Shown: in pieces, positions 6,153 to 55,831 of the stretch
How the letters are laid out: every line of letters starts with the position of its first letter
Position numbering within the stretch: the first letter of the stretch is position 1
Source of the DNA: Escherichia phage ALITA
Sequence record: PP359570
Length of the DNA stretch: 64,000 nt
Direction: 5' to 3' (one strand)
Made by a program: the position numbers and the translations under genes
Notes under the pieces: model-generated
Told to the model about the DNA's origin: nothing
Database searches by the model: none
What the model saw: the letters and a program-made list of their open reading frames with translations, nothing else

Positions 6153-6623
6153 TTAGTCAGATTCCCAAATGTTGTCTTTCTTAACCCACATTCGTTGATT
6201 ATCTGAACCTCTATAACGTTTCGTTGTTGGTTGATTCATATCATACTTACCATCTATCACTATGTCAACCAGTTTTTTAATTTTCTCTGGAATTTCTTCA
6301 AAAAGATATCCTGTATATAAGACAATATCTTTTTTGTTTCCAAAACAATCTCTTACCTTCTCAAGAACATACTCTACAGTGTCAATGTTCTCTTTGTCAA
6401 GAGGTTCACCACCTAAAACTGTTAATCCTTTAATGAAAGGTCGAGATAAATCTTCCAAGATAAGATCTAATGTTTCAGTAGTGAACTCTTGTCCGTAGTT
6501 ATACGACCAGGCTTTCTGGTTAAAGCAGCCACGGCAACCGTGGCTACAACCGCTCACCCACAAAGAGCATCTTACACCATCACCGTTGAGCATGTCAACA
6601 GGTTCATATCCGGCGTAATTCAA
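6153..6623 (-). CDS. nrdG: anaerobic ribonucleotide reductase activating protein (radical SAM)
   Basis: 156 aa, Cys cluster CSLWVSGCSHGCRGC, immediately downstream of and overlapping nrdD. Confidence 0.8.
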   Translation of the reverse strand: MNYAGYEPVDMLNGDGVRCSLWVSGCSHGCRGCFNQKAWSYNYGQEFTTETLDLILEDLSRPFIKGLTVLGGEPLDKENIDTVEYVLEKVRDCFGNKKDIVLYTGYLFEEIPEKIKKLVDIVIDGKYDMNQPTTKRYRGSDNQRMWVKKDNIWESD

Positions 6624-8419
6624 AAATGTTTCTCCCTTTCTAGTACCTCTTGCATTTTACCTTTATTATAAGGGCGAGAGTTAGGGGCAGAAAGGTATCC
6701 TGACACTCTTCTGATTACAGATATAGATTCTTCCTCATGATTGCCACAACTTGGACACTCGAAGCCTTTAGCTGTTGCCTTAAATTCACCATGAAAACCA
6801 CATTTGAAACACTGATCTACAGGTTGGTTCACGCCAAAATAAGGAATTTTGTTGTAGGCATAATCTACAAGAGTTTCCAGTGCTTGCAAGTTATTTTTAA
6901 GGTTTGGTGTTTCTACATAACCTATGTTCCCACCGTTACTGATTTGTGCAAAACCTTCCTCATAATCCCACTTTTGGAACGGGGTAGTGTGCATCCACAC
7001 AGGTTGATGGAAAGAGTTTGTCAAGTAGTCACGATCAATAGAACCAGGATAGCGATCATTTAATGCTTTGGCAAATTTATAGCACAAGGATTCTGCTGGT
7101 GTTCCATACAAACTAAAAGCTAAACCAGAACGTTCTTTAAATGTGCCACAGATATCCTTCATATATTGAAGGATGTTTTTACCCATTGCTTTTGGATTGG
7201 TGTTACCTGGGTATAAAATCTCCATAGCTTCTGCTAAACCTACATAACCGATACTAATAGAGGCATAACCACCTTCAAATAGTTTACCAATCTCTTCATT
7301 AGCTTCTAGTCGAGCTAAAGCCCCTTCCATAAACAATGTAGGGTTTTGAGATGCTTTGGTATGTCTAATACGGTTAACACGTAGCATATGTGCCTTATAC
7401 GCCACCTCCATATGTTGTTCCAACAGTTCAGTAAATAAGATGCCCTTTTCACGGGACTCTGCTGCAATGATAGGTAAGTTTAAAGAAACTACGCCTAAGT
7501 TGAAACGACCATCATATTTTTCACCTTGCTCTGTTGCATAGTATGACAAGAAGCTACGGCAACCCATGCTTGTGACGCGACCATCTGAAGATCCTGTAAC
7601 TTCTTTATTTAAAGGTACAGAGATAAAATCAGGATAAATGCGTTCAGCACAACACTCCATTGCCAGTTGCTTCAAATCATAGTTTGGATCGCCAGCTTTC
7701 ATGTTAACACCATCTTCCAAGAAGAAGATAACTTTAGGAAACACAGGAGTTACCCTATCTTTTCCCAATCCTTGTTTGTGCACCATTAGGTAGTTTTTAG
7801 TGATCATTCTACCAAAAGCAGAGGTATCCAAACCTAAACTAATTGTTATAAAAGGTGACTGACCATTTACACTCATTAGAGTGTTCACCTGGTAGATTAA
7901 AGTTTGCATTGCATCATAGACCTGTTTATCTACCATACGCATAGCAATATCATAATCGCCAACATCGGCATATATTTTATTAAAACTTGCTTTAACGTAT
8001 TGACTAAGCCCAGTATCAACATGTGCACAAGTTTGTCCACCATATTGGCTAGAAGCTACTGCTTGAATAATTTGAGTTAGGACAGTAGTCGCTACACCGA
8101 TAGATTTTGGTTTTTCAATATGTGCATTACCAATACGGAAACCGTTCTCAAGCATATCTTGGTAATTTACCAGGCAACAATTAGTTAAAGGTGAGAGTAA
8201 ATAATCTAAATCGTGAATGTGACCATACCCACTTTTATGCCATTCTGCCAGATCTTCCGGTAAAATATGGGTCATTGCCATGTGCTTGCTTAGGATACCT
8301 GCTAGTAAGTCTCGGTGAGTATTAACAATCATTGCAGGTTTGTTTGCATTTTCACGAGTAAATTCTTCGGATGTTTGTTCGAGGAATCCGATTACATCCT
8401 CATATAGTTTTTGGGTCAT
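6620..8419 (-). CDS. nrdD: anaerobic ribonucleoside-triphosphate reductase
   Basis: ~600 aa; C-terminal glycine-radical motif RRVSGYLS and Zn-ribbon Cys pairs (CFKCGF...CPSCG); start set at MTQKL with GGAGG RBS; uninterrupted (no intron). Confidence 0.85.
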   Translation of the reverse strand: MTQKLYEDVIGFLEQTSEEFTRENANKPAMIVNTHRDLLAGILSKHMAMTHILPEDLAEWHKSGYGHIHDLDYLLSPLTNCCLVNYQDMLENGFRIGNAHIEKPKSIGVATTVLTQIIQAVASSQYGGQTCAHVDTGLSQYVKASFNKIYADVGDYDIAMRMVDKQVYDAMQTLIYQVNTLMSVNGQSPFITISLGLDTSAFGRMITKNYLMVHKQGLGKDRVTPVFPKVIFFLEDGVNMKAGDPNYDLKQLAMECCAERIYPDFISVPLNKEVTGSSDGRVTSMGCRSFLSYYATEQGEKYDGRFNLGVVSLNLPIIAAESREKGILFTELLEQHMEVAYKAHMLRVNRIRHTKASQNPTLFMEGALARLEANEEIGKLFEGGYASISIGYVGLAEAMEILYPGNTNPKAMGKNILQYMKDICGTFKERSGLAFSLYGTPAESLCYKFAKALNDRYPGSIDRDYLTNSFHQPVWMHTTPFQKWDYEEGFAQISNGGNIGYVETPNLKNNLQALETLVDYAYNKIPYFGVNQPVDQCFKCGFHGEFKATAKGFECPSCGNHEEESISVIRRVSGYLSAPNSRPYNKGKMQEVLEREKHF

Positions 8420-8435
8420 TAATCCTCCGTGGAAA

Positions 8436-8462
8436 ATAAAAGCCAGCATTAAGCTGGCTTTA
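8436..8462 (-). terminator. rho-independent terminator-like hairpin
   Basis: AGCCAGC-TTAA-GCTGGCT stem-loop followed by TTTTATTTT on minus strand, between the 316-aa gene and the nrdD RBS. Confidence 0.45.
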
Positions 8463-8508: not shown

Positions 8509-9459
8509 TTAGTCAAGGTTTTTGGTAATACGTGTACAACCATCAGAAGTCAAACCGTCAACTTGAGTTTCCCAAGTGCCATGAATATTTCGGAACAATG
8601 TTGTTACACCTTTTGGTTCATTAATAATGATTGCCATAACAAGTTTAGGATCGATAACAGACATAATCTTTTCCTCAATACCCTCTGTAATAACATTATT
8701 ACGCACAATATTAATTACATCTTCTTGTACAGAAAGGGTACTTACGTTCTTAAGAGTATATACCTGCTGCGTAGTGTAAATGATACGAACATAACTTACA
8801 GAACGAGTAGGCACAGGTTTACGCGGTCGGCGAAAACGTGGTTTTGGTGAAGATTCAGTCTTACTTTCATTTTTTGAATAATACTCCTCAAACAGTTTAG
8901 TAAATGTTTTTACATCAACTACAAACCGATCTTTCCTATATGGAGAATTCTTATGTGCACCATTAATACCACTGTTTTCATCGAAGAAAGTAATGTTTTC
9001 TTCAGTTGAATATGTTAGATAATGGTCTGCATCTTTCCAATGTGGTTGTGGACAATGCGGATTACAAACGGAAAGCAGATAACTAATATCTTCTTCCGTT
9101 GCACTAGTATCCAGGAAACACGTATTATGCACAGTCAGTTCTACTTTTGCAACCATATCCATTTCTTTATCCTCGTTGGCAAGATATTCAGTACGAATAA
9201 TCTCCAGAAAACCTTCAGGTGTTACTTCCATAAATGTGTATTCAGGGTGAAGTTCCATATATTCAAATCCACAACCATCTAATTGCTGTAGGAAGTTAGG
9301 ATAGAAGAACAAATCATTAACACTGTGAATCAGATCATTGATTTCTGCTTCAGTTGTGTAACCAAAACTCTTGTGAATTGCTTCGTTAAGAATATGCAGG
9401 ATACCCATCTCTTCTGCTGCTTTTTTAACTTCCAGTTTATTAGCGTAAAATGCAATCAT
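8509..9459 (-). CDS. hypothetical protein with basic KPRFRRPRKP segment
   Basis: 316-aa ORF in operon context; no recognisable catalytic motif. Confidence 0.5.
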   Translation of the reverse strand: MIAFYANKLEVKKAAEEMGILHILNEAIHKSFGYTTEAEINDLIHSVNDLFFYPNFLQQLDGCGFEYMELHPEYTFMEVTPEGFLEIIRTEYLANEDKEMDMVAKVELTVHNTCFLDTSATEEDISYLLSVCNPHCPQPHWKDADHYLTYSTEENITFFDENSGINGAHKNSPYRKDRFVVDVKTFTKLFEEYYSKNESKTESSPKPRFRRPRKPVPTRSVSYVRIIYTTQQVYTLKNVSTLSVQEDVINIVRNNVITEGIEEKIMSVIDPKLVMAIIINEPKGVTTLFRNIHGTWETQVDGLTSDGCTRITKNLD

Positions 9460-9476: not shown

Positions 9477-9911
9477 TTAGTTTAAAATTTCTTTTGCAAT
9501 GGTAGAAGCAAGTTTTCCATCATATTGATTCGGATACTCTGCTTTAAGGTGTTTCATCATATCTGGCATTTTCTTGCCTGTCAAGGCAAATTCTTCAGCA
9601 ATAGCTCGAAGATCATCTTCAGATAGCATTTCTGGCAAATATTTTTCCAGAGTGGTGATATCACGCATAGCTCGCTCACACTTGCTAATGGAGGCATTAA
9701 CTTTCTTAAGCGAGTCTAGTTCCTCTTTAGCGTGTGCAATACCAATCTTAACAATGTTAATCATAATATCGTCTTCTGATTTGTTTAGATTTGCCTTTTG
9801 AGTACGAGCAAGGTCAAACTCACCAATAATATTAGTTAACAAAGCAAAAGCACCTTTATCGGTTGTACGTGCTAAGATACGATCTGCTTTCATTTGTGTC
9901 ACAATAGACAT
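9477..9911 (-). CDS. GatB/YqeY-domain protein
   Basis: 144 aa, all-helical; C-terminal ...DGKLASTIAKEIL resembles the GatB/YqeY C-terminal signature. Confidence 0.5.
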   Translation of the reverse strand: MSIVTQMKADRILARTTDKGAFALLTNIIGEFDLARTQKANLNKSEDDIMINIVKIGIAHAKEELDSLKKVNASISKCERAMRDITTLEKYLPEMLSEDDLRAIAEEFALTGKKMPDMMKHLKAEYPNQYDGKLASTIAKEILN

Positions 9912-9923
9912 TCTATTCTCCTC

Positions 9924-10496
9924 TTATTTGCTAATGCTTTGAATCTTATTTACAACACGGTTTATTGCCAGTGAAGCCCTAGGCTCCGCAATACCTGTTG
10001 CATAGATATAAGGATGACCTCTTGGAGACTCCCTCATACCGAATGAACCTAATTCTAAACCATATTTATCCTCTACGTCAACCCCAATATTAGTGGGTAC
10101 TAAATATGTTTTAACTCCATAATAAGTAGAGAAGAAACAGCGCATAGCGTTAGCATACTCTTCAATTGTAGCATCAGGGTAGAACTCAATCAACTCCAAT
10201 TTCAAGAAAATATTGAAATGAGTGTCATCTAAATTTTCTTCTGTACGGTAACATGGTGTTAGTGCCATATAAGGATTACCTGCTGCAAATTCAAAACCAT
10301 CCTTCTCCATTTGCAGGAAAGATTGTTCTGCACTGGCTACATAGTATTTACCGTTAGGATGCCCTAATGGGCGATCCTCTTTATTTTCTGGTAGTGTGTA
10401 CGCCAGTATATCAGCATCCACGAGATATGGAACTTCCAACATTTGTGCAAACCGACCATAGTAATCAATAGCTTGAGCTATTACTTCAACATTCAT
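9924..10496 (-). CDS. minimal class II (IIb, AspRS/AsnRS/LysRS-type) aminoacyl-tRNA-synthetase-like catalytic core
   Basis: Motif-2-like TPCYRTEENLDDTHFNIFLKLELIEFY (compare c-FRxE...H-PEFT-lE-Y), preceding YYVASAEQSFLQ (compare fyaLpqSPQlfKQ) and EVPYL motif-1-like; only 190 aa, no anticodon-binding domain. Confidence 0.45.
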   Translation of the reverse strand: MNVEVIAQAIDYYGRFAQMLEVPYLVDADILAYTLPENKEDRPLGHPNGKYYVASAEQSFLQMEKDGFEFAAGNPYMALTPCYRTEENLDDTHFNIFLKLELIEFYPDATIEEYANAMRCFFSTYYGVKTYLVPTNIGVDVEDKYGLELGSFGMRESPRGHPYIYATGIAEPRASLAINRVVNKIQSISK

Positions 10497-10744
10497 GAGC
10501 GACCTCCATTGCGGAATGCACGTTTAGTAATGTTCGACATAGTGATCAAATCTTGAAGCGTCATATCAGGAAAATGCTGTTCAAGAACACCTTCAACAGC
10601 GCCTACAATATCTGATAACTCAATAAGTTGCATCAGCTTGCAATCTTGATCAATAGCATCCTGAAGTTCATAAAGCTCTTCTTGAATTTTAGCAATAGAA
10701 CCATATTCCTCTTTGCTAATCTCCTTCAAATGATACCCTGCCAC
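10493..10744 (-). CDS. hypothetical protein (possible MazG-like all-alpha NTP pyrophosphohydrolase)
   Basis: 83 aa; EE..E...E.LSDIVGAVEGVLE pattern is reminiscent of MazG-type EExxE motifs; weak. Confidence 0.35.
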   Translation of the reverse strand: MAGYHLKEISKEEYGSIAKIQEELYELQDAIDQDCKLMQLIELSDIVGAVEGVLEQHFPDMTLQDLITMSNITKRAFRNGGRS

Positions 10745-10754
10745 TTTAACCCCC

Positions 10755-13529
10755 TTAGTTTACCAGTTTATTTATATCTGGTAAAAGATTTATTTCACCT
10801 AAGAAATCACCTTCACCTTCCTCTAGCCAACTCTCATATGCTTGTGCATGATTATAGTTACCATCAAAAGAATCTGCAACAAATTTTTCTACAGTTTTTC
10901 GAGATGTGCCAGCACCAAATACACCAAGTTTAATACCATTGATCGGTAAAGTGGTGCTTGTGGGTACTTTCTCTGTTGCAACACGGTTGATATCTATAAT
11001 CTCCTGTACGGTTGTGTTCCATTGTAAGCATTTAACACAACGGGTATGCGCTACATACAGTAGGTTTCGCTCTGCCTCTTCCAGTCCTACCCATTCACCA
11101 GTCTTTTTATCATAGTTGGAAGGAAAATCATTAGCAACAATAACCTGATCCCACTCCAAACCTTTAGACTTGTGTGCTGTAGTCAGTGTGACTTTTGCTG
11201 TAGGAGAATTTCTATGCGTTCTAAGTGTATGTGCTATAGTGTTTGCCTTACCAGAAACTACGATGTTTAACAAGCGTTTAGCATCTGGATCAGCCTCTGC
11301 ACACTCAACAAATTCATCCCAGTCTGCGTAAGGTAATACAGTTTCATGTTTTACTTTCTCAATATCTCCTCTCCGAAGAGCATTAACACTATCTACCATA
11401 GAGATAAAATCCCTGGTATCTACGTTAATAATAATTTCTTCCCCATCTGCAATACGATCCATTGCCTCCATAAGCAAGGTTAAATTCTTGCGAAAGATGA
11501 TAGTGTAAGGTTTTGTATAGTCTACAACATCTGATTTGTAGCTACCTACTACAGTATCAAAGCCTTTACCAACCAAAGGATGACGCAAAGGTTCTTTATC
11601 GCTTAAAATCATATTGGCAATGTTTGCCACTTTGGGGCCAAAACGGAAGCAAGCAGTTAATGGAAGTTCTGCCCCATACTTAGCTGTTTCAATCATCATA
11701 TTAGAGCTACCTCTAAATTGATAAATGCAGTTGTGGCTAAGAATTTCATTGCCAAAGAAGTTAGCAGTATCCTCTACTTCAATATCATAATAGATACCCT
11801 CACTATCTACAATGTCCACAATCTCTTCTGCCGTTACAGTATCACCATCTTTTACCAACACAGACATGCCTTTAAACAAACCCGCTGCCGGAATTAAGTT
11901 ATATTTGGCACTGTTCACAGAGGACATGCATTCTTTTAAAGATGCAAACGGAACTATTTCAAGGATCTTTTGTGCAAAACTCAATGCTTCACGATAAGAA
12001 TTGAAATATTTACGTACACGGTAACGACCTTCCAATTTAGCAGCACTTACGCTTACACCTGCTTTAATCAGTGAAGAATAGATCGGCATTTCACTTTCTG
12101 TCCACTCAAAACTAACTTGTGTTCCTTTACAACCTTGTGCTCGCAAAGTCACTGTTAGCATTTTTCTTTCATCTACTGCACAATTGATGCTGTGCCAGTG
12201 TGGATAAGCAAAATGATAATCTTTATCCTCTAAAAGTTTAAAACCATTTTGTCCGAATTGTTCAAAGATGTTATTGATCCTTTCTTGATTAATGCCGCGT
12301 GAACTTGCTTCAAATACACAAGTAGGAATGCCATATTGTAAACTGTAAGCCATTTCTTTTTCCATAGCAGCTTCACGGTTTTCAACAATATCCAACACCC
12401 ATAATTTCTGTGCTTTTTCAGAACGTGTACGTTGCCCCAGTTTAGAAAAACCTTCTTTATCATCGAATTTGTTAGTGATCCCTACTCGGAAACCTAAATC
12501 TTTCCTCCACATTAGGTATACCACCATCTGATCATCTTTCAGAACATAGGATGAAGCCCAAATACGATGGTTATGTGTCATATCTAAAGTTTTACCTGTG
12601 GCAGTAATAATATTCCTACCTTTTGTACGTGTAGATAAAGTCTTATTTGTTACTTTTCTAAATGTAACTTTACCATTAGAATAAGACTCTACCTTATCAC
12701 CGATTTGCAGGTCTTTCATTGTAACCTGACCATTCTCGGTATTAAGTACCGTGTTTTCCGACACACATTGGAATTCATCGCCCACTACCACAATTTGTTT
12801 TGCAGATTTAGCATTTCGCAGAATAGACAAGAATGCAGGGTTAACATCCTGGAATTCATCACCAAAAATAATATCATAACCAAGATCAGCACCAGACAAT
12901 TCAAACAATTTTACATAGGTGTCATGCGTCATTAAAGTATCTGTGTTAGGATCGATGCGCTCTCGCCACAATTGTTTTGCATACTTAACTACTTCTGTAA
13001 TTAGTTTGTGTTCGTTAATACCTTTTCTTTTAATATCTGCAAGATGTACACTAGGAAAATGTTTACGGCTGATAAAAGGATCATCCGAAAATTCAAACTT
13101 ACCTACGGTTTGCTTGATCATTAAACCGATCATAGCACGAGTTAAAAGTGTTTTACCTCGTTTATCAATAAGATTATTAATCTTAAATTTCTTTGCTATC
13201 TCACTACCTGTACCTGCAACGTTAACATACTGTCCTTCTGGTCGTGACAGTTTTGCACGTAAACGATGATCCAGGAATTGATAGCAAATAGAATGCAATG
13301 TACGGCATTCTACATTTAGTGGCATCTTACGTCGTGCTTCTTCTGCCATGCTTTTATTGAAAGCTAAGTAAAGAATGCGATCTTCTGTACTGTTAGCCAG
13401 CAAATAAAGTGTTGACGTTTTGCCTGATCCAGATTTAGCTTGGATAGTTAAAAAGCGATGGTCTGGAAAAGCCTCCTTAATAGCTGTTTGCTCTTCTGTT
13501 GGAGTGAAGCTCAACTCTTTCTTAGCCAT
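10755..13529 (-). CDS. UvrD/PcrA-like SF1 DNA helicase, interrupted by an in-frame intein
   Basis: Walker A AKSGSGKTST, motif II GDEFQD; motif III split as VVVGDEFQ / CIYQFRGSS by a 346-aa insertion; start set at MAKKE with GAGAGG RBS. Confidence 0.8.
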   Translation of the reverse strand: MAKKELSFTPTEEQTAIKEAFPDHRFLTIQAKSGSGKTSTLYLLANSTEDRILYLAFNKSMAEEARRKMPLNVECRTLHSICYQFLDHRLRAKLSRPEGQYVNVAGTGSEIAKKFKINNLIDKRGKTLLTRAMIGLMIKQTVGKFEFSDDPFISRKHFPSVHLADIKRKGINEHKLITEVVKYAKQLWRERIDPNTDTLMTHDTYVKLFELSGADLGYDIIFGDEFQDVNPAFLSILRNAKSAKQIVVVGDEFQCVSENTVLNTENGQVTMKDLQIGDKVESYSNGKVTFRKVTNKTLSTRTKGRNIITATGKTLDMTHNHRIWASSYVLKDDQMVVYLMWRKDLGFRVGITNKFDDKEGFSKLGQRTRSEKAQKLWVLDIVENREAAMEKEMAYSLQYGIPTCVFEASSRGINQERINNIFEQFGQNGFKLLEDKDYHFAYPHWHSINCAVDERKMLTVTLRAQGCKGTQVSFEWTESEMPIYSSLIKAGVSVSAAKLEGRYRVRKYFNSYREALSFAQKILEIVPFASLKECMSSVNSAKYNLIPAAGLFKGMSVLVKDGDTVTAEEIVDIVDSEGIYYDIEVEDTANFFGNEILSHNCIYQFRGSSNMMIETAKYGAELPLTACFRFGPKVANIANMILSDKEPLRHPLVGKGFDTVVGSYKSDVVDYTKPYTIIFRKNLTLLMEAMDRIADGEEIIINVDTRDFISMVDSVNALRRGDIEKVKHETVLPYADWDEFVECAEADPDAKRLLNIVVSGKANTIAHTLRTHRNSPTAKVTLTTAHKSKGLEWDQVIVANDFPSNYDKKTGEWVGLEEAERNLLYVAHTRCVKCLQWNTTVQEIIDINRVATEKVPTSTTLPINGIKLGVFGAGTSRKTVEKFVADSFDGNYNHAQAYESWLEEGEGDFLGEINLLPDINKLVN
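11730..12767 (-). mobile_element. intein (346 aa) within helicase motif III
   Basis: Begins with Cys (CVSENTVL...), ends ...SHN followed by Cys; block-B-like TxxH (THNH); excision would restore contiguous GDEFQ-CIYQFRGS; size suggests an embedded homing-endonuclease domain. Confidence 0.7.
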
Positions 13530-13530
13530 T

Positions 13531-14007
13531 TCAACCTCTCTTAATTTGTTTAACAAGCATAGGAACAAAGTCTCGTTTTAAAATTTGTTCAATAATATGA
13601 TCAGGTAGCTGTTGGAAATTATAATTAAAAGCTACTGTCTCACCTTTAGGCGTTTCTACCCGCACATATAACATGTTACGAAGTTTATCAACTTGTGCTG
13701 TATATTCTAAACCATGTAATTGATGTAATGCAAACATCAAATCATCAGTTTCAGTTTGGAATCTATCCCTTCCCTGCATCAAGGACAAGGAAAAAGGTAG
13801 ATTTTCCCTAAGAGCCACCTTCTTAGGAACTAGTGAAGGAAAATACTCACCAATAACTTCCTGTGTAAGCTGGATACACTCTTTTTCAAGTTGGTTTTGT
13901 TCCTTAAGTTCACAAACACTTTTTTGTAAAGTGTTAACCTCTTTTTGCAAAGCTGCTAGTTGAGCACTTAACTTTCTTTTTTGATTACGACCAAAACGTT
14001 TAGACAT
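13531..14007 (-). CDS. hypothetical protein
   Basis: 158-aa ORF, coiled-coil-like N-terminus. Confidence 0.5.
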   Translation of the reverse strand: MSKRFGRNQKRKLSAQLAALQKEVNTLQKSVCELKEQNQLEKECIQLTQEVIGEYFPSLVPKKVALRENLPFSLSLMQGRDRFQTETDDLMFALHQLHGLEYTAQVDKLRNMLYVRVETPKGETVAFNYNFQQLPDHIIEQILKRDFVPMLVKQIKRG

Positions 14008-14552: not shown

Positions 14553-14918
14553 TTAAACGTTTTCTAAATCTTTTAAGGCATTACCCAACGTTAGAACAAT
14601 AACATCGTTTGCTGCCTCTTCCCCATTGATATTGGTGAAATTTGGTGTGACAAAAGTAACCATATAAAACTCGTCCACCTGGAAGACAGCAATAACACCA
14701 TCCATCTTAACATCTTGACGAAAGGAAAAACCAATCATCTTCTCTTGCAAAGGCATATCCCCTTCCTTCATTACTGCCAGGGAGTTTTCAGGAATGTTAT
14801 ATTTATCTGCTCCGATGTAGATGTACGTAATGTTATCTTTATCGTGATGATACAGGGTTGCTTTTTCCATATCTAAACCTGACAGATCAAATACGTTAAT
14901 TTCTTGTGTAGTCTTCAT
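14553..14918 (-). CDS. hypothetical protein
   Basis: Start moved to MKTTQE (GGGAGG RBS) to resolve overlap with upstream ORF. Confidence 0.45.
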   Translation of the reverse strand: MKTTQEINVFDLSGLDMEKATLYHHDKDNITYIYIGADKYNIPENSLAVMKEGDMPLQEKMIGFSFRQDVKMDGVIAVFQVDEFYMVTFVTPNFTNINGEEAANDVIVLTLGNALKDLENV

Positions 14919-15282
14919 AAATATCCTCCCAAATCCAATAATCATCTGTGTAAGTAGGATGCCTTTTATCCCACTCTGTTCTAGCCCAAGCAACCGCTGC
15001 TACCAACACATCACCATGACAAGGTTGAGGTGAGCAGAAGCAAACTAAATCTTTCCCTTCTAATTCTAACAAATCTTCAAGAGTGATTTTACCACAACGA
15101 ATTTGCTCCCACAACCACTCTTTATATCTTTGTATAGTTGATCCTCGTGGTTCATCATCCTTTAACTTAAAAGGATTTGCAAACTTTGAGGCTTTTAACC
15201 CCATATGAGGCATAGCTCTGCCAATGTACACTGCACCTTCAGGTATTACTTTACCTAAATGGTAGAAATTTAATACTTTCAT
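14896..15282 (-). CDS. DUF4326-like protein
   Basis: VYIGR...ANPF...CFCSPQPCHGDVL pattern resembles DUF4326; start moved to MKVLNF. Confidence 0.4.
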   Translation of the reverse strand: MKVLNFYHLGKVIPEGAVYIGRAMPHMGLKASKFANPFKLKDDEPRGSTIQRYKEWLWEQIRCGKITLEDLLELEGKDLVCFCSPQPCHGDVLVAAVAWARTEWDKRHPTYTDDYWIWEDIYEDYTRN

Positions 15283-15283
15283 A

Positions 15284-15634
15284 TTAACCCAAACACATCT
15301 GTGCAATCAAGCCCTGTATAAATTTATTAGCTTCTTTACTGTCGTAATCAGTTTCTTCTGGATATCCATCTTCATCGTACACAACTGTACCTTCAATATA
15401 CCCTGCCTCAATTAAGGCACGGATCATATCAAATTGCCAGCATGAGTTACCAAATGGACGTTTACCATTAAAACACTCTTCTTCTCTCCATAACGTAGAG
15501 AGTAGTTGTCGGAAATATTCCCGTACAGTGACAGTACCAAGATCTGAATCCTCAAACATAACATCCAGGGCATCAGGATTGCTTTTCTCTACATAAGGAA
15601 TATATTTAACACCATTAATAGTTACATCAAGCAT
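15284..15634 (-). CDS. hypothetical protein
   Basis: 116-aa acidic ORF. Confidence 0.5.
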   Translation of the reverse strand: MLDVTINGVKYIPYVEKSNPDALDVMFEDSDLGTVTVREYFRQLLSTLWREEECFNGKRPFGNSCWQFDMIRALIEAGYIEGTVVYDEDGYPEETDYDSKEANKFIQGLIAQMCLG

Positions 15635-52971: not shown

Positions 52972-53292
52972 TTAACAAGTAATATTGGGAGTAACAATTG
53001 GATTAACAATTGGAGTGATAGGGTACGTAAACCAAGGGCTTCCAATTTCCCAAGGATTATAAGGTCTACGAGGATCAAATGGAGGAGTTACTTCAGGCTT
53101 TTTCCAAATCTCCGCTAGTTGTTTCTTCCATTTATCCCTTGCTGTCTCATTATCTTCATCCAACTGTTCATCATTATCTTTTATTTCTGGTTTTGGAAAT
53201 AAAAGCTCTTTGACTAACTCAACATCTTCCGTCTCAATAGTAGTTTCTTTCGTAAGTTCTCCTACTGTTTCTTTAATTGTGATTTTATACAT
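52972..53292 (-). CDS. hypothetical protein
   Basis: 106-aa ORF, Pro-rich C-terminus. Confidence 0.45.
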   Translation of the reverse strand: MYKITIKETVGELTKETTIETEDVELVKELLFPKPEIKDNDEQLDEDNETARDKWKKQLAEIWKKPEVTPPFDPRRPYNPWEIGSPWFTYPITPIVNPIVTPNITC

Positions 53293-54038
53293 TAGTCCTC
53301 CTCTAAAGTAGAATAAAATTGTAACGTATTTGAATCATCAAAATATGCAAAGGTTAAATTACCATTGAAGCAAGATCCTGTGTCCATATATACCCTATTA
53401 CTGCTAATCATAGGTTTAGGAACATAAGAATGCCCGTGAAATACATAATCTACTCCTGAAACCCTAGGAAGAAGAATCCCTTCAAGTGCGCAATCTATCA
53501 TATCACGATCCCACATTAAAGATTCTGTGAATCGAGAAACTTGCTCTTTATTCATATTCAAACAAAATGGCAAAACTTCTGTCACTGGTAAATGTTCCAA
53601 AACTGAAGGATACCCACCGTGAATAAAGCCTAGTTTCATATTACGATAATTGACAACAAGTACAACAGGTAAATCTTCTAGCATCAAAGCAAGAGCAGTT
53701 GCACCCTCTTCTCCACACTCGTCTAGAACTGTATGGCCTCCGTTCTGAAACCAACATTCGTAATATCGTCTATCACCTTCTAGCAACCCTTTAATCATCA
53801 TATCTTCATGGTTCCCACGAATACCATAACGATTTAGCTTTCTGGTGAATTCAACAACACAACGAAAATTCTGCTTGCCGCGATCTGTAAGATCTCCTAA
53901 AGATACAACAACATCTTGATCTCGGATACCTAAAGTATTAACACCTTTCTGGTACAAATCAAAGCAACCATGTAAATCACCAATAATAAACAGGTCTTGA
54001 TCATCTTTTACACTAATTTCTTGATATACTAGCATCAA
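53292..54038 (-). CDS. Ser/Thr protein phosphatase (calcineurin-like metallophosphoesterase)
   Basis: GDLHGC, GDLTDRG, GNHE motifs in canonical order. Confidence 0.8.
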   Translation of the reverse strand: MMLVYQEISVKDDQDLFIIGDLHGCFDLYQKGVNTLGIRDQDVVVSLGDLTDRGKQNFRCVVEFTRKLNRYGIRGNHEDMMIKGLLEGDRRYYECWFQNGGHTVLDECGEEGATALALMLEDLPVVLVVNYRNMKLGFIHGGYPSVLEHLPVTEVLPFCLNMNKEQVSRFTESLMWDRDMIDCALEGILLPRVSGVDYVFHGHSYVPKPMISSNRVYMDTGSCFNGNLTFAYFDDSNTLQFYSTLEED

Positions 54039-54361
54039 CTCTCCTCAAAATCCATAAGTATAAAGATATTAACTTTACCTTCTATATTATGTTCTACAAC
54101 AAGATCTGCAAATTCTTTGTAGGCTTTTTCTTCTATTTGTTCAATGTGAGACGCTACATCTTTGTATATAGCGTCACCATCTACTTTAACAAGGAGGAAT
54201 AGAGATCTTACTTCAATCTCTTTATTTTTACGGGGTAGAAAATCGACGGCTTCTTGTATACGCCAGCCGAGATACCCTGGAGTCCTTTGAATATCCTCCA
54301 AATGACTTTCTAAGATTTCCCTTCCTTTGTCTATTAAAGCCTGTTCTGTCGTTATTTTCAT
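54035..54361 (-). CDS. hypothetical protein
   Basis: 108-aa ORF. Confidence 0.45.
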   Translation of the reverse strand: MKITTEQALIDKGREILESHLEDIQRTPGYLGWRIQEAVDFLPRKNKEIEVRSLFLLVKVDGDAIYKDVASHIEQIEEKAYKEFADLVVEHNIEGKVNIFILMDFEES

Positions 54362-54371
54362 CCCCTTCTCC

Positions 54372-54944
54372 TTAATGTGTTAATGAAACTGCGTAACTAA
54401 ACACAGGTTCAGATATTACATCGGCTACAGTAATAAAAACGTCTTCGTCTTGAGTTGTTTCTACACGACATACAGTTACACCATTCACCACGAATTCAAC
54501 GCAATGTGGAATATCTTCACAAACGAAGGTAGTGTAAGTAACACCCAAAGCATCATACAAAGATTTAACAGTGTTTGCAAGTGCCGCAGTTTCTTCTTTT
54601 TCTGAGACAATGAATGCTGTAACAACAAGATTGTTTGCATAGTTTAGACTGTCCTCTATAGCCAATGATTTACAAGGTAGTAATGCAAAATATTTACCTG
54701 GTTTAATCAGACCTGCTTCCCATTGATTCAAAATTGCTTGGGATGGTTTAGTAATATAAAACAGATTTTCACTTGGGTTATCAATATTACTTCTGGCGAT
54801 ACAACGTGAAGGATTATTAATATCAAACACATGATCAAAATCTACACAAACTGGTAAACTGAAAGGTGTGAATTTTTTACCTAATAATCCTACTGCTGAC
54901 AATATGTTTGCTGTGCTTATCTTCCCGTTAAAAGCTAAACGCAT
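54372..54944 (-). CDS. hypothetical protein
   Basis: 190-aa ORF. Confidence 0.5.
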   Translation of the reverse strand: MRLAFNGKISTANILSAVGLLGKKFTPFSLPVCVDFDHVFDINNPSRCIARSNIDNPSENLFYITKPSQAILNQWEAGLIKPGKYFALLPCKSLAIEDSLNYANNLVVTAFIVSEKEETAALANTVKSLYDALGVTYTTFVCEDIPHCVEFVVNGVTVCRVETTQDEDVFITVADVISEPVFSYAVSLTH

Positions 54945-55168: not shown

Positions 55169-55831
55169 TTATTTAATATTCAATTTTGCACAAAGACGTT
55201 GTACCGCTTTGGCATCGAACAAACTCCCACGAATAGTTCTCTTTCCTGATTCATTCAGATGTTTTGCAATCGTCATATATGGCGTTTTACAAGCTCTGTA
55301 TGCAACTAAAGAATCTTTTAAAGAAAGCGCAAACTCTTTTGAGCGTTTTGCTTCTTCCGTTTTCGTATAATCTGTTCTTTTGTATTTAGGGTTTGCTGCA
55401 CCAAGAAGCGTTCCCTTCGCTTTTGCTACTTTAAGGCTCTTCTTAACACGATCAGATATTGCACGAGCCTCTTCTTCTGCCAGAACTGCTAAAATATTTA
55501 TTATCATATTTTCAGCGGAGGGCATAGTTGCTATTCGTACATTAATCATCTCTAACAAGGTTGCAACAGAAGCTGTGTTACGTCCAAGACGGTCAACCTT
55601 AGCAACAACAAGTGTAGCACCTGTTTCTTTGCAAAGATTAACAGCTTTTACAAGCTCTCTACGTTGCTTCCAATCGCCTTTACCCGAATAAAACTCTGCA
55701 AAGCTACCTACAATAGTATAATTTTCTTGTGAATCCAGGAAGCGTTGGATATCTGCTTCCTGTGATTCTATACCATACTGGTTGCCTTGTTGTTTCTTCT
55801 TAGAAAGTCGATGATACAGTACAAACTTCAT
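55169..55831 (-). CDS. serine recombinase (resolvase/invertase family)
   Basis: N-terminal YHRLSKKKQ (catalytic Ser context), VAKVDRLGRN resolvase motif, C-terminal HTH-like segment. Confidence 0.7.
   Translation of the reverse strand: MKFVLYHRLSKKKQQGNQYGIESQEADIQRFLDSQENYTIVGSFAEFYSGKGDWKQRRELVKAVNLCKETGATLVVAKVDRLGRNTASVATLLEMINVRIATMPSAENMIINILAVLAEEEARAISDRVKKSLKVAKAKGTLLGAANPKYKRTDYTKTEEAKRSKEFALSLKDSLVAYRACKTPYMTIAKHLNESGKRTIRGSLFDAKAVQRLCAKLNIK

Follow-up and report, generated by a model that had tools for sequence, protein, structure and literature searches.

What can a phage do with a protein of only 190 residues that carries the motifs of a class II aminoacyl-tRNA synthetase, and with which of the adjacent genes does it work? 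The question is raised by positions 9477-10744 of a 64,000-nucleotide stretch of DNA from Escherichia phage ALITA (PP359570; the whole stretch is called the window below), which shares 98-99% identity with phi92-like E. coli myoviruses (Justusliebigvirus, Stephanstirmvirinae). This span holds exactly three called open reading frames (ORFs), all on the minus strand, which encode proteins of 83, 190, and 144 residues (Table 1). An earlier note, made from the letters of this DNA, had read the 190-residue protein, hereafter the core, as a class IIb synthetase fragment that may work together with the YqeY-like product of the 144-residue gene. We find instead that the conserved module consists of the 83-residue protein, hereafter the partner, and the core, and that the core is, as judged from its sequence relationships, a phage-specific, minimal class II catalytic core derived from seryl-tRNA synthetase (SerRS).

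Sequence and predicted structure of the core

Searches with the single sequence are uninformative: a Pfam scan of the core gives nothing above cut-off (neither tRNA-synt_2b nor Seryl_tRNA_N; the best synthetase model is tRNA-synt_2d at E 0.13), an NCBIfam scan gives no match, not even to serS, and phmmer against Protein Data Bank (PDB) sequences returns only FGF noise. The synthetase kinship is therefore visible solely through family profiles and structure prediction. The AlphaFold2 model of the core (predicted local distance difference test, pLDDT, 94.8; predicted template modeling score, pTM, 0.89) retrieves the catalytic domains of PylRS, SerRS, and PheRS-alpha in Foldseek at E ~1e-9; together with the SerRS profile alignments and the invariant motif residues given below, this bears out the earlier note in its claim of a class II synthetase fold and of motifs 1, 2, and 3. 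The class IIb label given there does not hold, since the nearest relatives are the class IIa SerRSs, and AsnA and EpmA (13.4 each) and AspRS (12.6) score lower against the core than HisRS/HisZ (16.5), the amino acid:carrier-protein ligase Bll0957 (16.5), and PylRS (16.4). The family profile finds Aquifex SerRS among PDB sequences at E 2.5e-5, and hhalign aligns the core family with E. coli SerRS, from SerRS residue 172 on, at 89% probability; a global alignment with the catalytic domains of two genuine SerRSs reaches 96% probability and E 2.3e-9 over 184 columns.

The motif strings quoted in the earlier note all occur in the core, at residues 21-25 (EVPYL), 51-62 (YYVASAEQSFLQ), 82-106 (CYRTEENLDDTHFNIFLKLELIEFY), and 168-176 (GIAEPRASL). 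Motif 1 is formed by the nearly invariant V22-P23, and the surrounding VPYLVD corresponds to VPYLVN of SerRS; T34 and P36 correspond to the TGQLPKF segment, and the TxE-like loop, S55-A-E57 in SAEQSF, to PTAEVPL. Motif 2, with R84/E86...F97-x-K99-x-E101, reads TPCYRxE...F-x-K-x-E and matches TPCFRSE...F-x-K-x-E; D140 matches the Asp of DLEVW, the Mg/ATP site E148-L-G-S151 matches E-I-S-S, and motif 3 (T167-G-I-A-E-P-R173) matches (S/T)-G-L-A-V-G-R. A 42-sequence alignment contains 21 invariant residues (S55, E57, Q58, F60, A78, T80, P81, C82, R84, F97, K99, E101, D140, E148, G150, S151, G153, T167, P172, R173, and S175). Every core position that aligns with the ATP, Mg, or amino-acid site of SerRS is kept in these alignments, and we take the retained invariant positions to be those that, in the Thermus thermophilus SerRS-adenylate structures, bind ATP, Mg2+, and the amino and hydroxyl groups of serine. 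From this retention we infer that the core forms an adenylate, the substrate being probably serine or another small amino acid like it.

Relative to SerRS, the core is without the ~170-residue N-terminal arm and starts ~10 residues before motif 1; its motif-2 loop is 6 residues shorter, and four surface insertions and the C-terminal tail are gone. The absence of a tRNA- or anticodon-binding domain agrees with the earlier note, as does the finding that the protein is shorter than AsnA, EpmA, HisZ, PylSc, and the amino acid:carrier-protein ligases; we know of no smaller stand-alone class II core in nature that has all three motifs. Its 57 close homologs span 162-261 residues, nearly all of them 175-200, and nearly all of ~1,600 cluster representatives fall into the latter range as well. 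Both the core and the partner are acidic (median isoelectric point ~5).

The gene is already catalogued under loose annotations ("histidyl/seryl tRNA synthetase"), and its bare observation is not new. The 190-position PHROGs family phrog_4806 matches the core at E 3e-71 under the label "histidyl tRNA synthetase," and GenBank records use "putative seryl-tRNA synthetase" or "putative tRNA synthetase"; the database labels "histidyl tRNA synthetase," "tRNA amidotransferase," and "aspartyl/glutamyl-tRNA synthetase" are misleading. A full-text literature search found no paper on the core protein, its SerRS origin, or the pairing of core and partner.

An exhaustive search with the core profile yields 1,604 clusters at 50% identity, of which 1,062 reach E<=1e-30. 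Among 185,579 species genomes, the core is found at just 15 loci; these are metagenome bins except for a 775-bp contig of one isolate-labelled assembly, and several are probably mis-binned viral contigs. The core is present in 272 cultured phages, whose hosts include Enterobacteria (E. coli), Acinetobacter, Caulobacter, and Microcystis, and in uncultured phages of 630-640 kb. Given the number of clusters, the few genome loci, and the wide range of phage hosts, the core family is large, old, and essentially phage-restricted.

The conserved partner of the core

Ninety-nine loci, comprising 80 diverse viral loci with 6-kb flanks, 4 from exact-protein look-ups and a phage record, and the 15 species-representative genome loci, had their ORFs searched with iterated hidden Markov models (HMMs) for the partner and for YqeY. 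The partner is found on the strand of the core in 95 of the 99 loci, representing >60 lineages, where it lies upstream (74), downstream (13), or fused to the core (8); one locus beyond these 95 holds a partner remnant. The domain-to-domain distance has a median of 2 nucleotides, stays within 100 nucleotides in 74 loci, and is at most 1.4 kb. The fusions run in the order core, short linker, partner, and this order is also seen in 8 additional fusions among 194 cluster representatives, one of them the 266-residue "putative Seryl-tRNA synthetase" of Microcystis phage MaMV-DC. The earlier note had named this putative MazG-like protein merely as an operon neighbor; because of its same-strand presence in nearly all of these loci, it is the real partner. 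In ALITA, the two genes share the stop/start overlap ATGA, and a Shine-Dalgarno sequence (GGAGG) sits in the last codons (G-G-R-S) of the partner gene; from the junction sequence, this overlap is read as translational coupling, and 4- or 1-nucleotide overlaps of partner and core genes recur at many distant loci.

The 144-residue protein is a YqeY-domain protein, as had been claimed (Pfam PF09424, 30.3 bits against a cut-off of 27, E 5e-7; phrog_1460, E 1.5e-36). The iterated YqeY HMM, however, gives matches at only three phi92-type loci among the 84 viral loci and at none of the 15 genome loci. Of the phage database records, 272 contain the core and 151 contain YqeY, and for the most part these are not the same records; the two genes are adjacent in phi92-type phages and in a single group of Klebsiella phages. 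YqeY is mostly absent from phAPEC8-type relatives, the cores of which are 77-82% identical, and in Caulobacter phage CcrBL9 the core and YqeY genes are 44 kb apart. Since YqeY is not co-conserved with the core in related phages, the proposed functional pairing of these two proteins is refuted, and YqeY is a lineage-specific neighbor, at most accessory and outside the conserved module. A DUF4326 gene lies 4.4 kb from the module in the window, and in Erwinia-phage relatives, a DUF4326 gene stands directly downstream of the core, in the slot that YqeY occupies here.

Nine residues of the partner are invariant among 71 diverse homologs (Y4, H5, I9, K19, E22, E23, E26, E42, and D45), and E22, E23, E26, E42, and D45 make up the EExxE...ExxD metal-binding signature of the all-alpha nucleoside triphosphate (NTP) pyrophosphohydrolases. 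When these homologs are scanned singly against Pfam, PRA-PH (HisE) is matched by 52 of the 71 (best E 2.8e-5) and MazG by 6, in keeping with the MazG-like character ascribed to this gene in the earlier note; a homolog from an Acinetobacter phage is already annotated as MazG-like. The AlphaFold2 model (pLDDT 90) consists of an extended N-terminal segment and three helices. On the basis of these profile matches and residues, we consider the partner a likely member of the all-alpha NTP pyrophosphohydrolase superfamily (MazG/HisE/dimeric dUTPase). The partner profile run against PDB sequences returned only spurious DegV/FakB matches. An acyl or peptidyl carrier protein, considered on account of an "ELSD" segment, was rejected as the identity of the partner: the homologs match PRA-PH/MazG and never carrier families, and S44 is not invariant.

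In four jumbo-phage loci, a cupin-like domain of ~200 residues with an invariant H..HDH..C..H pattern is fused N-terminal to the partner, and at a fifth locus, this domain is a separate gene directly downstream of the core. It corresponds to phrog_4784, a function-unknown family, and has a weak match to a phage "cysteine dioxygenase" family; Pfam gives no match to it and PDB only FlgE noise. The domain may be a third component in this jumbo-phage clade.

Genomic context of the module

Genes for tRNAs are found within 6 kb of the module at 21 of 83 loci versus 1 of 60 phage NrdD control loci (Fisher p=4e-5), and arrays of at least three tRNAs at 12 of 83 versus 0 of 60 (p=0.001); when loci are grouped at 50% identity, 15 of 51 clusters have nearby tRNA genes. 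The module is inside or at the edge of a tRNA array in ~10 loci, and the arrays around it often contain tRNA-Ser genes. A second recurrent neighbor, present within 0.3-4.7 kb in 12 loci of distant lineages, encodes an RlaP/NrdC.11-type nucleotidyltransferase (Pol-beta, RNA-repair-associated; PF10127) and is annotated as nrdC.11 in a T4-like Acinetobacter phage. At one locus, on a 23-kb contig that is binned as Nanoarchaeota and is probably viral, a complete 431-residue SerRS is encoded 0.9 kb upstream of a fused core/partner gene, and because a full-length SerRS stands beside the fused module there, the core is not a simple SerRS substitute. Elsewhere (L002), a class I synthetase gene lies 2.4 kb downstream of the module (3 kb from its start). 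Unbiased clustering of the neighbors of these loci revealed no third universal gene, the larger clusters being antisense-ORF artefacts, RlaP (12 loci), and DUF4326, and Pfam scans of the immediate and tRNA-array neighbors returned mixed auxiliary genes with no decisive signal.

Three further RNA genes are of note. A permuted tmRNA gene (tag peptide ANDETFGETALAA) is located in a phage tRNA array 1.2 kb upstream of one module; a tRNA with a CUA anticodon (tRNA-Pyl according to ARAGORN) is part of an array that adjoins another; and a tRNA with a UCA anticodon, called tRNA-SeC, is found near a phage nrdD. The latter two are suppressor-type tRNAs and may indicate that stop codons are recoded in the phages concerned.

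A predicted inactive paralog in the same window

Six-frame translation of the window reveals a second 190-residue family member ~44 kb from the core. This paralog aligns with the core family at 97% hhalign probability (E 4e-11, 175 columns) and matches phrog_4806 at E 4e-60, with the substitutions R84->S in motif 2, R173->V in motif 3, E57->S, E148->T, and S151->R, and it is predicted from these changes to be catalytically dead. It is nevertheless kept in 132 phage records across the Stephanstirmvirinae at 54-65% identity between genera, and this conservation indicates that it is under selection. Its neighbors encode a NinI-like Ser/Thr phosphatase and a phrog_15398 protein; no HisE/MazG-like gene is found beside it. 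By analogy with SLIMP-SerRS and HisZ, the paralog may be a non-catalytic heterodimer partner or a regulator of the active core (PMC9437257). SLIMP, which is derived from SerRS, has no catalytic residues, and coexists with an active copy, provides the precedent (PMC9437257); SLIMP, however, is a full-length insect mitochondrial protein that heterodimerizes with the mitochondrial SerRS, whereas the phage paralog has 190 residues and its heterodimerization is hypothetical. Just past the paralog, there is a serine recombinase/DNA-invertase-like gene (phrog_125). Such a gene is uncommon in myoviruses that are strictly lytic, and it might govern the inversion of a DNA segment.

A proposed two-subunit adenylate-forming enzyme and its possible acceptor

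The reading that we favor, tentatively and somewhat short of an even chance, is that the core and the partner form a two-subunit aminoacyl-adenylate-forming enzyme with a nucleotide-type acceptor. The core would condense ATP with serine, or with another small amino acid like it, into the aminoacyl-adenylate; the partner would join the core in a complex and contribute a second site that binds or hydrolyzes an NTP; and the activated aminoacyl group would then be handed to the acceptor. As this acceptor, we would guess at the 3' end or a nucleoside of a tRNA, favored because of the tRNA-array, RlaP, SerRS, and YqeY contexts; the pair would then be part of the tRNA-maintenance toolkit of large phages; the inactive paralog may heterodimerize with the active core. 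We do not think that the pair is a housekeeping synthetase. The general idea of the earlier note, a split amino-acid-activating system that acts on a tRNA or non-tRNA substrate, is viable in this form, with YqeY no longer its second subunit.

A bolder proposal, which we regard as doubtful, is that the pair represents an unrecognized type of two-subunit enzyme with a chemistry foreign to the synthetase paralogs, in which the inactive paralog would serve as a regulatory subunit. A natural class II core of ~180 residues, near the size of the laboratory "urzymes," would here be coupled to a HisE/MazG-type nucleotide site; such an enzyme might aminoacylate, protect, or repair tRNA 3' ends against host tRNA-targeting defenses or might produce a new aminoacyl-nucleotide or dinucleoside-polyphosphate metabolite during infection.

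Several points weigh against a tRNA-directed two-subunit enzyme. Its presumed amino acid and acceptor are drawn from alignment and gene context, and the tentative assignment of serine-binding residues is based on the T. thermophilus SerRS structures and the alignments. The lack of a tRNA-binding appendage, the short motif-2 loop, and the acidity of both proteins argue against autonomous binding of tRNA, and it is not obvious what part an NTP pyrophosphohydrolase would have in a tRNA-directed reaction; the ALITA partner itself remains under the Pfam cut-off (14.5 versus 21.3 bits). As to context, the NrdD loci that served as controls for the tRNA enrichment were drawn from partly different phages, and three quarters of the loci, the ALITA window included, have no nearby tRNA gene. 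Many neighbors belong to nucleotide metabolism, with NrdD/NrdG here and thymidylate synthase, ribonucleotide reductase, and dCMP deaminase elsewhere, and would fit a free-nucleotide acceptor equally well.

Free-nucleotide chemistry that involves no tRNA is the main rival, although we hold it to be unlikely, and the remaining rivals are lesser. The partner would bind an NTP or dNTP or make a monophosphate, and the aminoacyl-adenylate of the core would be used on that nucleotide: either the nucleotide would be aminoacylated, giving an aminoacyl-nucleotide metabolite or a modified precursor, or the bound NTP would attack the adenylate, giving a dinucleoside polyphosphate (Ap4N), the formation of which is a known side reaction of SerRS and other class II enzymes. 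This scheme is consistent with a partner of the NTP pyrophosphohydrolase superfamily with its metal ligands kept, with fusion and tight coupling that suggest consecutive or joint chemistry, with the acidity of both proteins, and with the position of the module among the nucleotide-metabolism genes just listed and in the T4-like nrdC region. Phages are also known to pair NTP pyrophosphatases with nucleotide-modifying enzymes, as in T4 gp56 with gp42 and MazZ with PurZ, where the second enzyme uses the product of the pyrophosphohydrolase; gp42 and PurZ are a hydroxymethylase and an adenylosuccinate-synthetase homolog, respectively, and are unfused, whereas the second enzyme of the module is a synthetase core. 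Free-nucleotide chemistry leaves the tRNA-array enrichment and the RlaP and YqeY neighbors unexplained, however, and an NTP pyrophosphatase frees pyrophosphate, which would drive adenylate formation backwards; we know of no aminoacyl-nucleotide pathway of this type.

It is improbable that the core, perhaps helped by the partner or, in phi92, by YqeY, is a genuine minimal SerRS that charges host or phage tRNA-Ser so as to boost translation or block stringent-response signaling in infection. The retained SerRS-type positions and the embedding of the module in arrays that often hold tRNA-Ser genes would suit such an enzyme, and YqeY domains enhance tRNA binding in the GatB tail and the C-terminal domain of Deinococcus GlnRS, but the N-terminal coiled-coil arm that recognizes tRNA-Ser is absent, the motif-2 loop is shortened, and the proteins are acidic. 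The full-length SerRS beside a fused module at one locus points to a non-redundant function, and the conserved NTPase-type residues of the partner would be left without a role. We consider it just as improbable that the core acts in the manner of HisZ, sensing an amino acid and ATP and allosterically controlling the partner, whose NTP-pyrophosphohydrolase activity would be the actual enzymatic function; the partner has its greatest similarity to HisE, a histidine-pathway protein, and the inactive paralog indicates that non-catalytic use of the fold occurs, but the motif-2 and motif-3 arginines and the Mg-site residues are invariant in the core family, which points to catalysis, and neither neighbor clustering nor Pfam scans revealed a HisG-like gene at any locus.

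The split system of the earlier note, in which YqeY would be the tRNA-binding subunit of the core, is very improbable despite the confirmed domain identity of YqeY and its adjacency to and co-transcription with the core in some phages, since YqeY is absent at 96 of the 99 core loci, its slot can be filled by DUF4326, and its gene has a ribosome-binding site of its own, whereas the 83-residue gene overlaps the core gene. That the partner is itself the acceptor rather than an enzyme, with a residue or prosthetic group that the core aminoacylates, for example the invariant K19 or S44 in the ELSD segment, is hardly credible, given that the partner matches HisE/MazG rather than carrier-protein profiles, that its invariant residues are acidic metal ligands and S44 varies among the 71 sequences, and that an enzyme covalently fused to its own stoichiometric substrate would be unusual.

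Comparison with known synthetase relatives

SerRS (class IIa) has motifs 1-3 and the VPYLV, T..P, TxE-type, F-x-K-x-E, E..S, and T/S-G-L-A-x-x-R elements in common with the core. SerRS differs in its length (~430 residues with the N-terminal coiled-coil tRNA arm, versus ~190 without it) and the core falls under threshold in the Pfam/NCBIfam synthetase models; the core, unlike SerRS, is paired or fused with a HisE/MazG-like protein. The amino acid:carrier-protein ligases (Bll0957, PDB 3mey) are, like the core, related to SerRS, without a tRNA-binding domain, and encoded alongside a protein of ~80 residues (PMC9437257). These ligases have ~300 residues and a phosphopantetheinylated carrier as partner, whereas the partner of the core is of the NTP-pyrophosphohydrolase type and the core family is restricted to phages. 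HisZ, which binds HisG, no longer has its catalytic residues; in the core, the catalytic residues are invariant, a HisG-like gene was not found, and the sequence kinship is to SerRS rather than HisRS. GluQRS (YadB), EpmA (PoxA/GenX), and AsnA are core-only synthetase relatives and transfer the aminoacyl group of their adenylates to ammonia, a lysine of a protein, or a nucleoside of a tRNA (PMC9437257); a mechanism of this kind is what we propose for the core. For SerRS, a 2022 review of synthetase paralogs gives only SLIMP and the amino acid:carrier-protein ligases (PMC9437257).

The core-only paralogs HisZ, AsnA, EpmA, GluQRS, and the amino acid:carrier-protein ligases have each revealed unexpected biochemistry, and among them the present family is set apart by how small its members are, by a partner of a new type, and by being open to experiment in E. 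coli phages, for instance phi92 and those of the BASEL Bas60 type. It is abundant (~1,600 clusters), essentially confined to phages, and tied to an NTP-pyrophosphohydrolase-type subunit by gene order, coupling, and fusion, and it could inform both urzyme ideas on the origin of class II enzymes and the question of how tRNA or nucleotide pools are managed by large phages when the host attacks them.

Organization of the ALITA locus

The minus-strand gene order is UvrD-type helicase, partner, core, YqeY, and the 316-residue gene, followed by a terminator-like hairpin, nrdD, and nrdG, which agrees with the operon setting described in the earlier note. The YqeY and 316-residue genes have separate ribosome-binding sites and follow gaps of 12-17 nucleotides (12 before the YqeY gene). 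The hairpin is likely the 3' end of a unit that comprises the five genes from the helicase to the 316-residue gene, as suggested by its sequence; promoter-like and terminator-like sites in the window, as found by consensus scan, show no enrichment over shuffled sequence. An Rfam scan of the window found no RNA family, and a tRNA gene search of the window found none.

Table 1. Coordinates of the features discussed; loci outside the ALITA window are given by their handles
Feature	Locus	Position	Strand	Basis or remark
UvrD/Rep-type helicase, 937 residues, with intein	ALITA	10755-13568	-	First gene of cluster
HisE/MazG-like partner gene, 83 residues	ALITA	10493-10744	-	GTG start; phrog_6408; all-alpha NTP pyrophosphohydrolase superfamily (likely)
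Stop/start overlap ATGA, partner/core genes	ALITA	10493-10496	-	Junction sequence
Predicted minimal SerRS-derived class II core, 190 residues	ALITA	9924-10496	-	phrog_4806
YqeY/GatB-tail-like gene, 144 residues	ALITA	9477-9911	-	phrog_1460; Pfam YqeY match
316-residue gene downstream of YqeY gene	ALITA	8509-9459	-
Terminator-like hairpin 3' of 316-residue gene	ALITA	8439-8461	-	Consensus scan, pattern match only
nrdD	ALITA	6620-8449	-	Single intact ORF, ~600 residues
DUF4326 gene	ALITA	14896-15306	-
NinI-like Ser/Thr phosphatase gene	ALITA	53292-54038
phrog_15398 protein gene	ALITA	54035-54361
Predicted catalytically dead paralog, 190 residues	ALITA	54372-54944	-	Core HMM match, six-frame translation of window
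Serine recombinase/DNA-invertase-like gene	ALITA	55169-55831	-	phrog_125
Cupin-like domain	L041	5043-5990
Cupin-like domain	L046	5175-6002
Cupin-like domain	L047	4953-5858
Cupin-like domain	L052	6552-7421
Cupin-like domain	L093	8579-9214
RlaP-type gene	L003	6835-8085
RlaP-type gene	L012-L015, L019, L024, L037, L041, L046, L047, L056
RlaP-type gene	L102	211-1242
SerRS, 431 residues	L090	5798-7093
Fused core/partner gene	L090	7977-8792
DUF4326 gene downstream of core, Erwinia-phage relatives	L009	6551-6889
DUF4326 gene downstream of core, Erwinia-phage relatives	L010, L011
Permuted tmRNA gene	L066	4111-4503
CUA-anticodon tRNA	L055	10956-11030		ARAGORN: tRNA-Pyl
UCA-anticodon tRNA	L165	10769-10865		Called tRNA-SeC
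nrdD in two annotated pieces, phage VEcB	L085	17451-20020		Around a 170-residue ORF

The helicase intein spans ~347 residues, begins with CVSENT... and ends with ...LSHN followed by Cys, and carries that annotation in phage PaulScherrer. The "ribonucleotide reductase" label of the 316-residue protein comes by way of phrog_15930; the protein has zero Pfam matches, and the label looks unsupported. In phage VEcB, which is 98.8% identical, the nrdD gene that is intact in ALITA is annotated as two pieces, and this split suggests a mobile insertion there, possibly an intron or a homing endonuclease.

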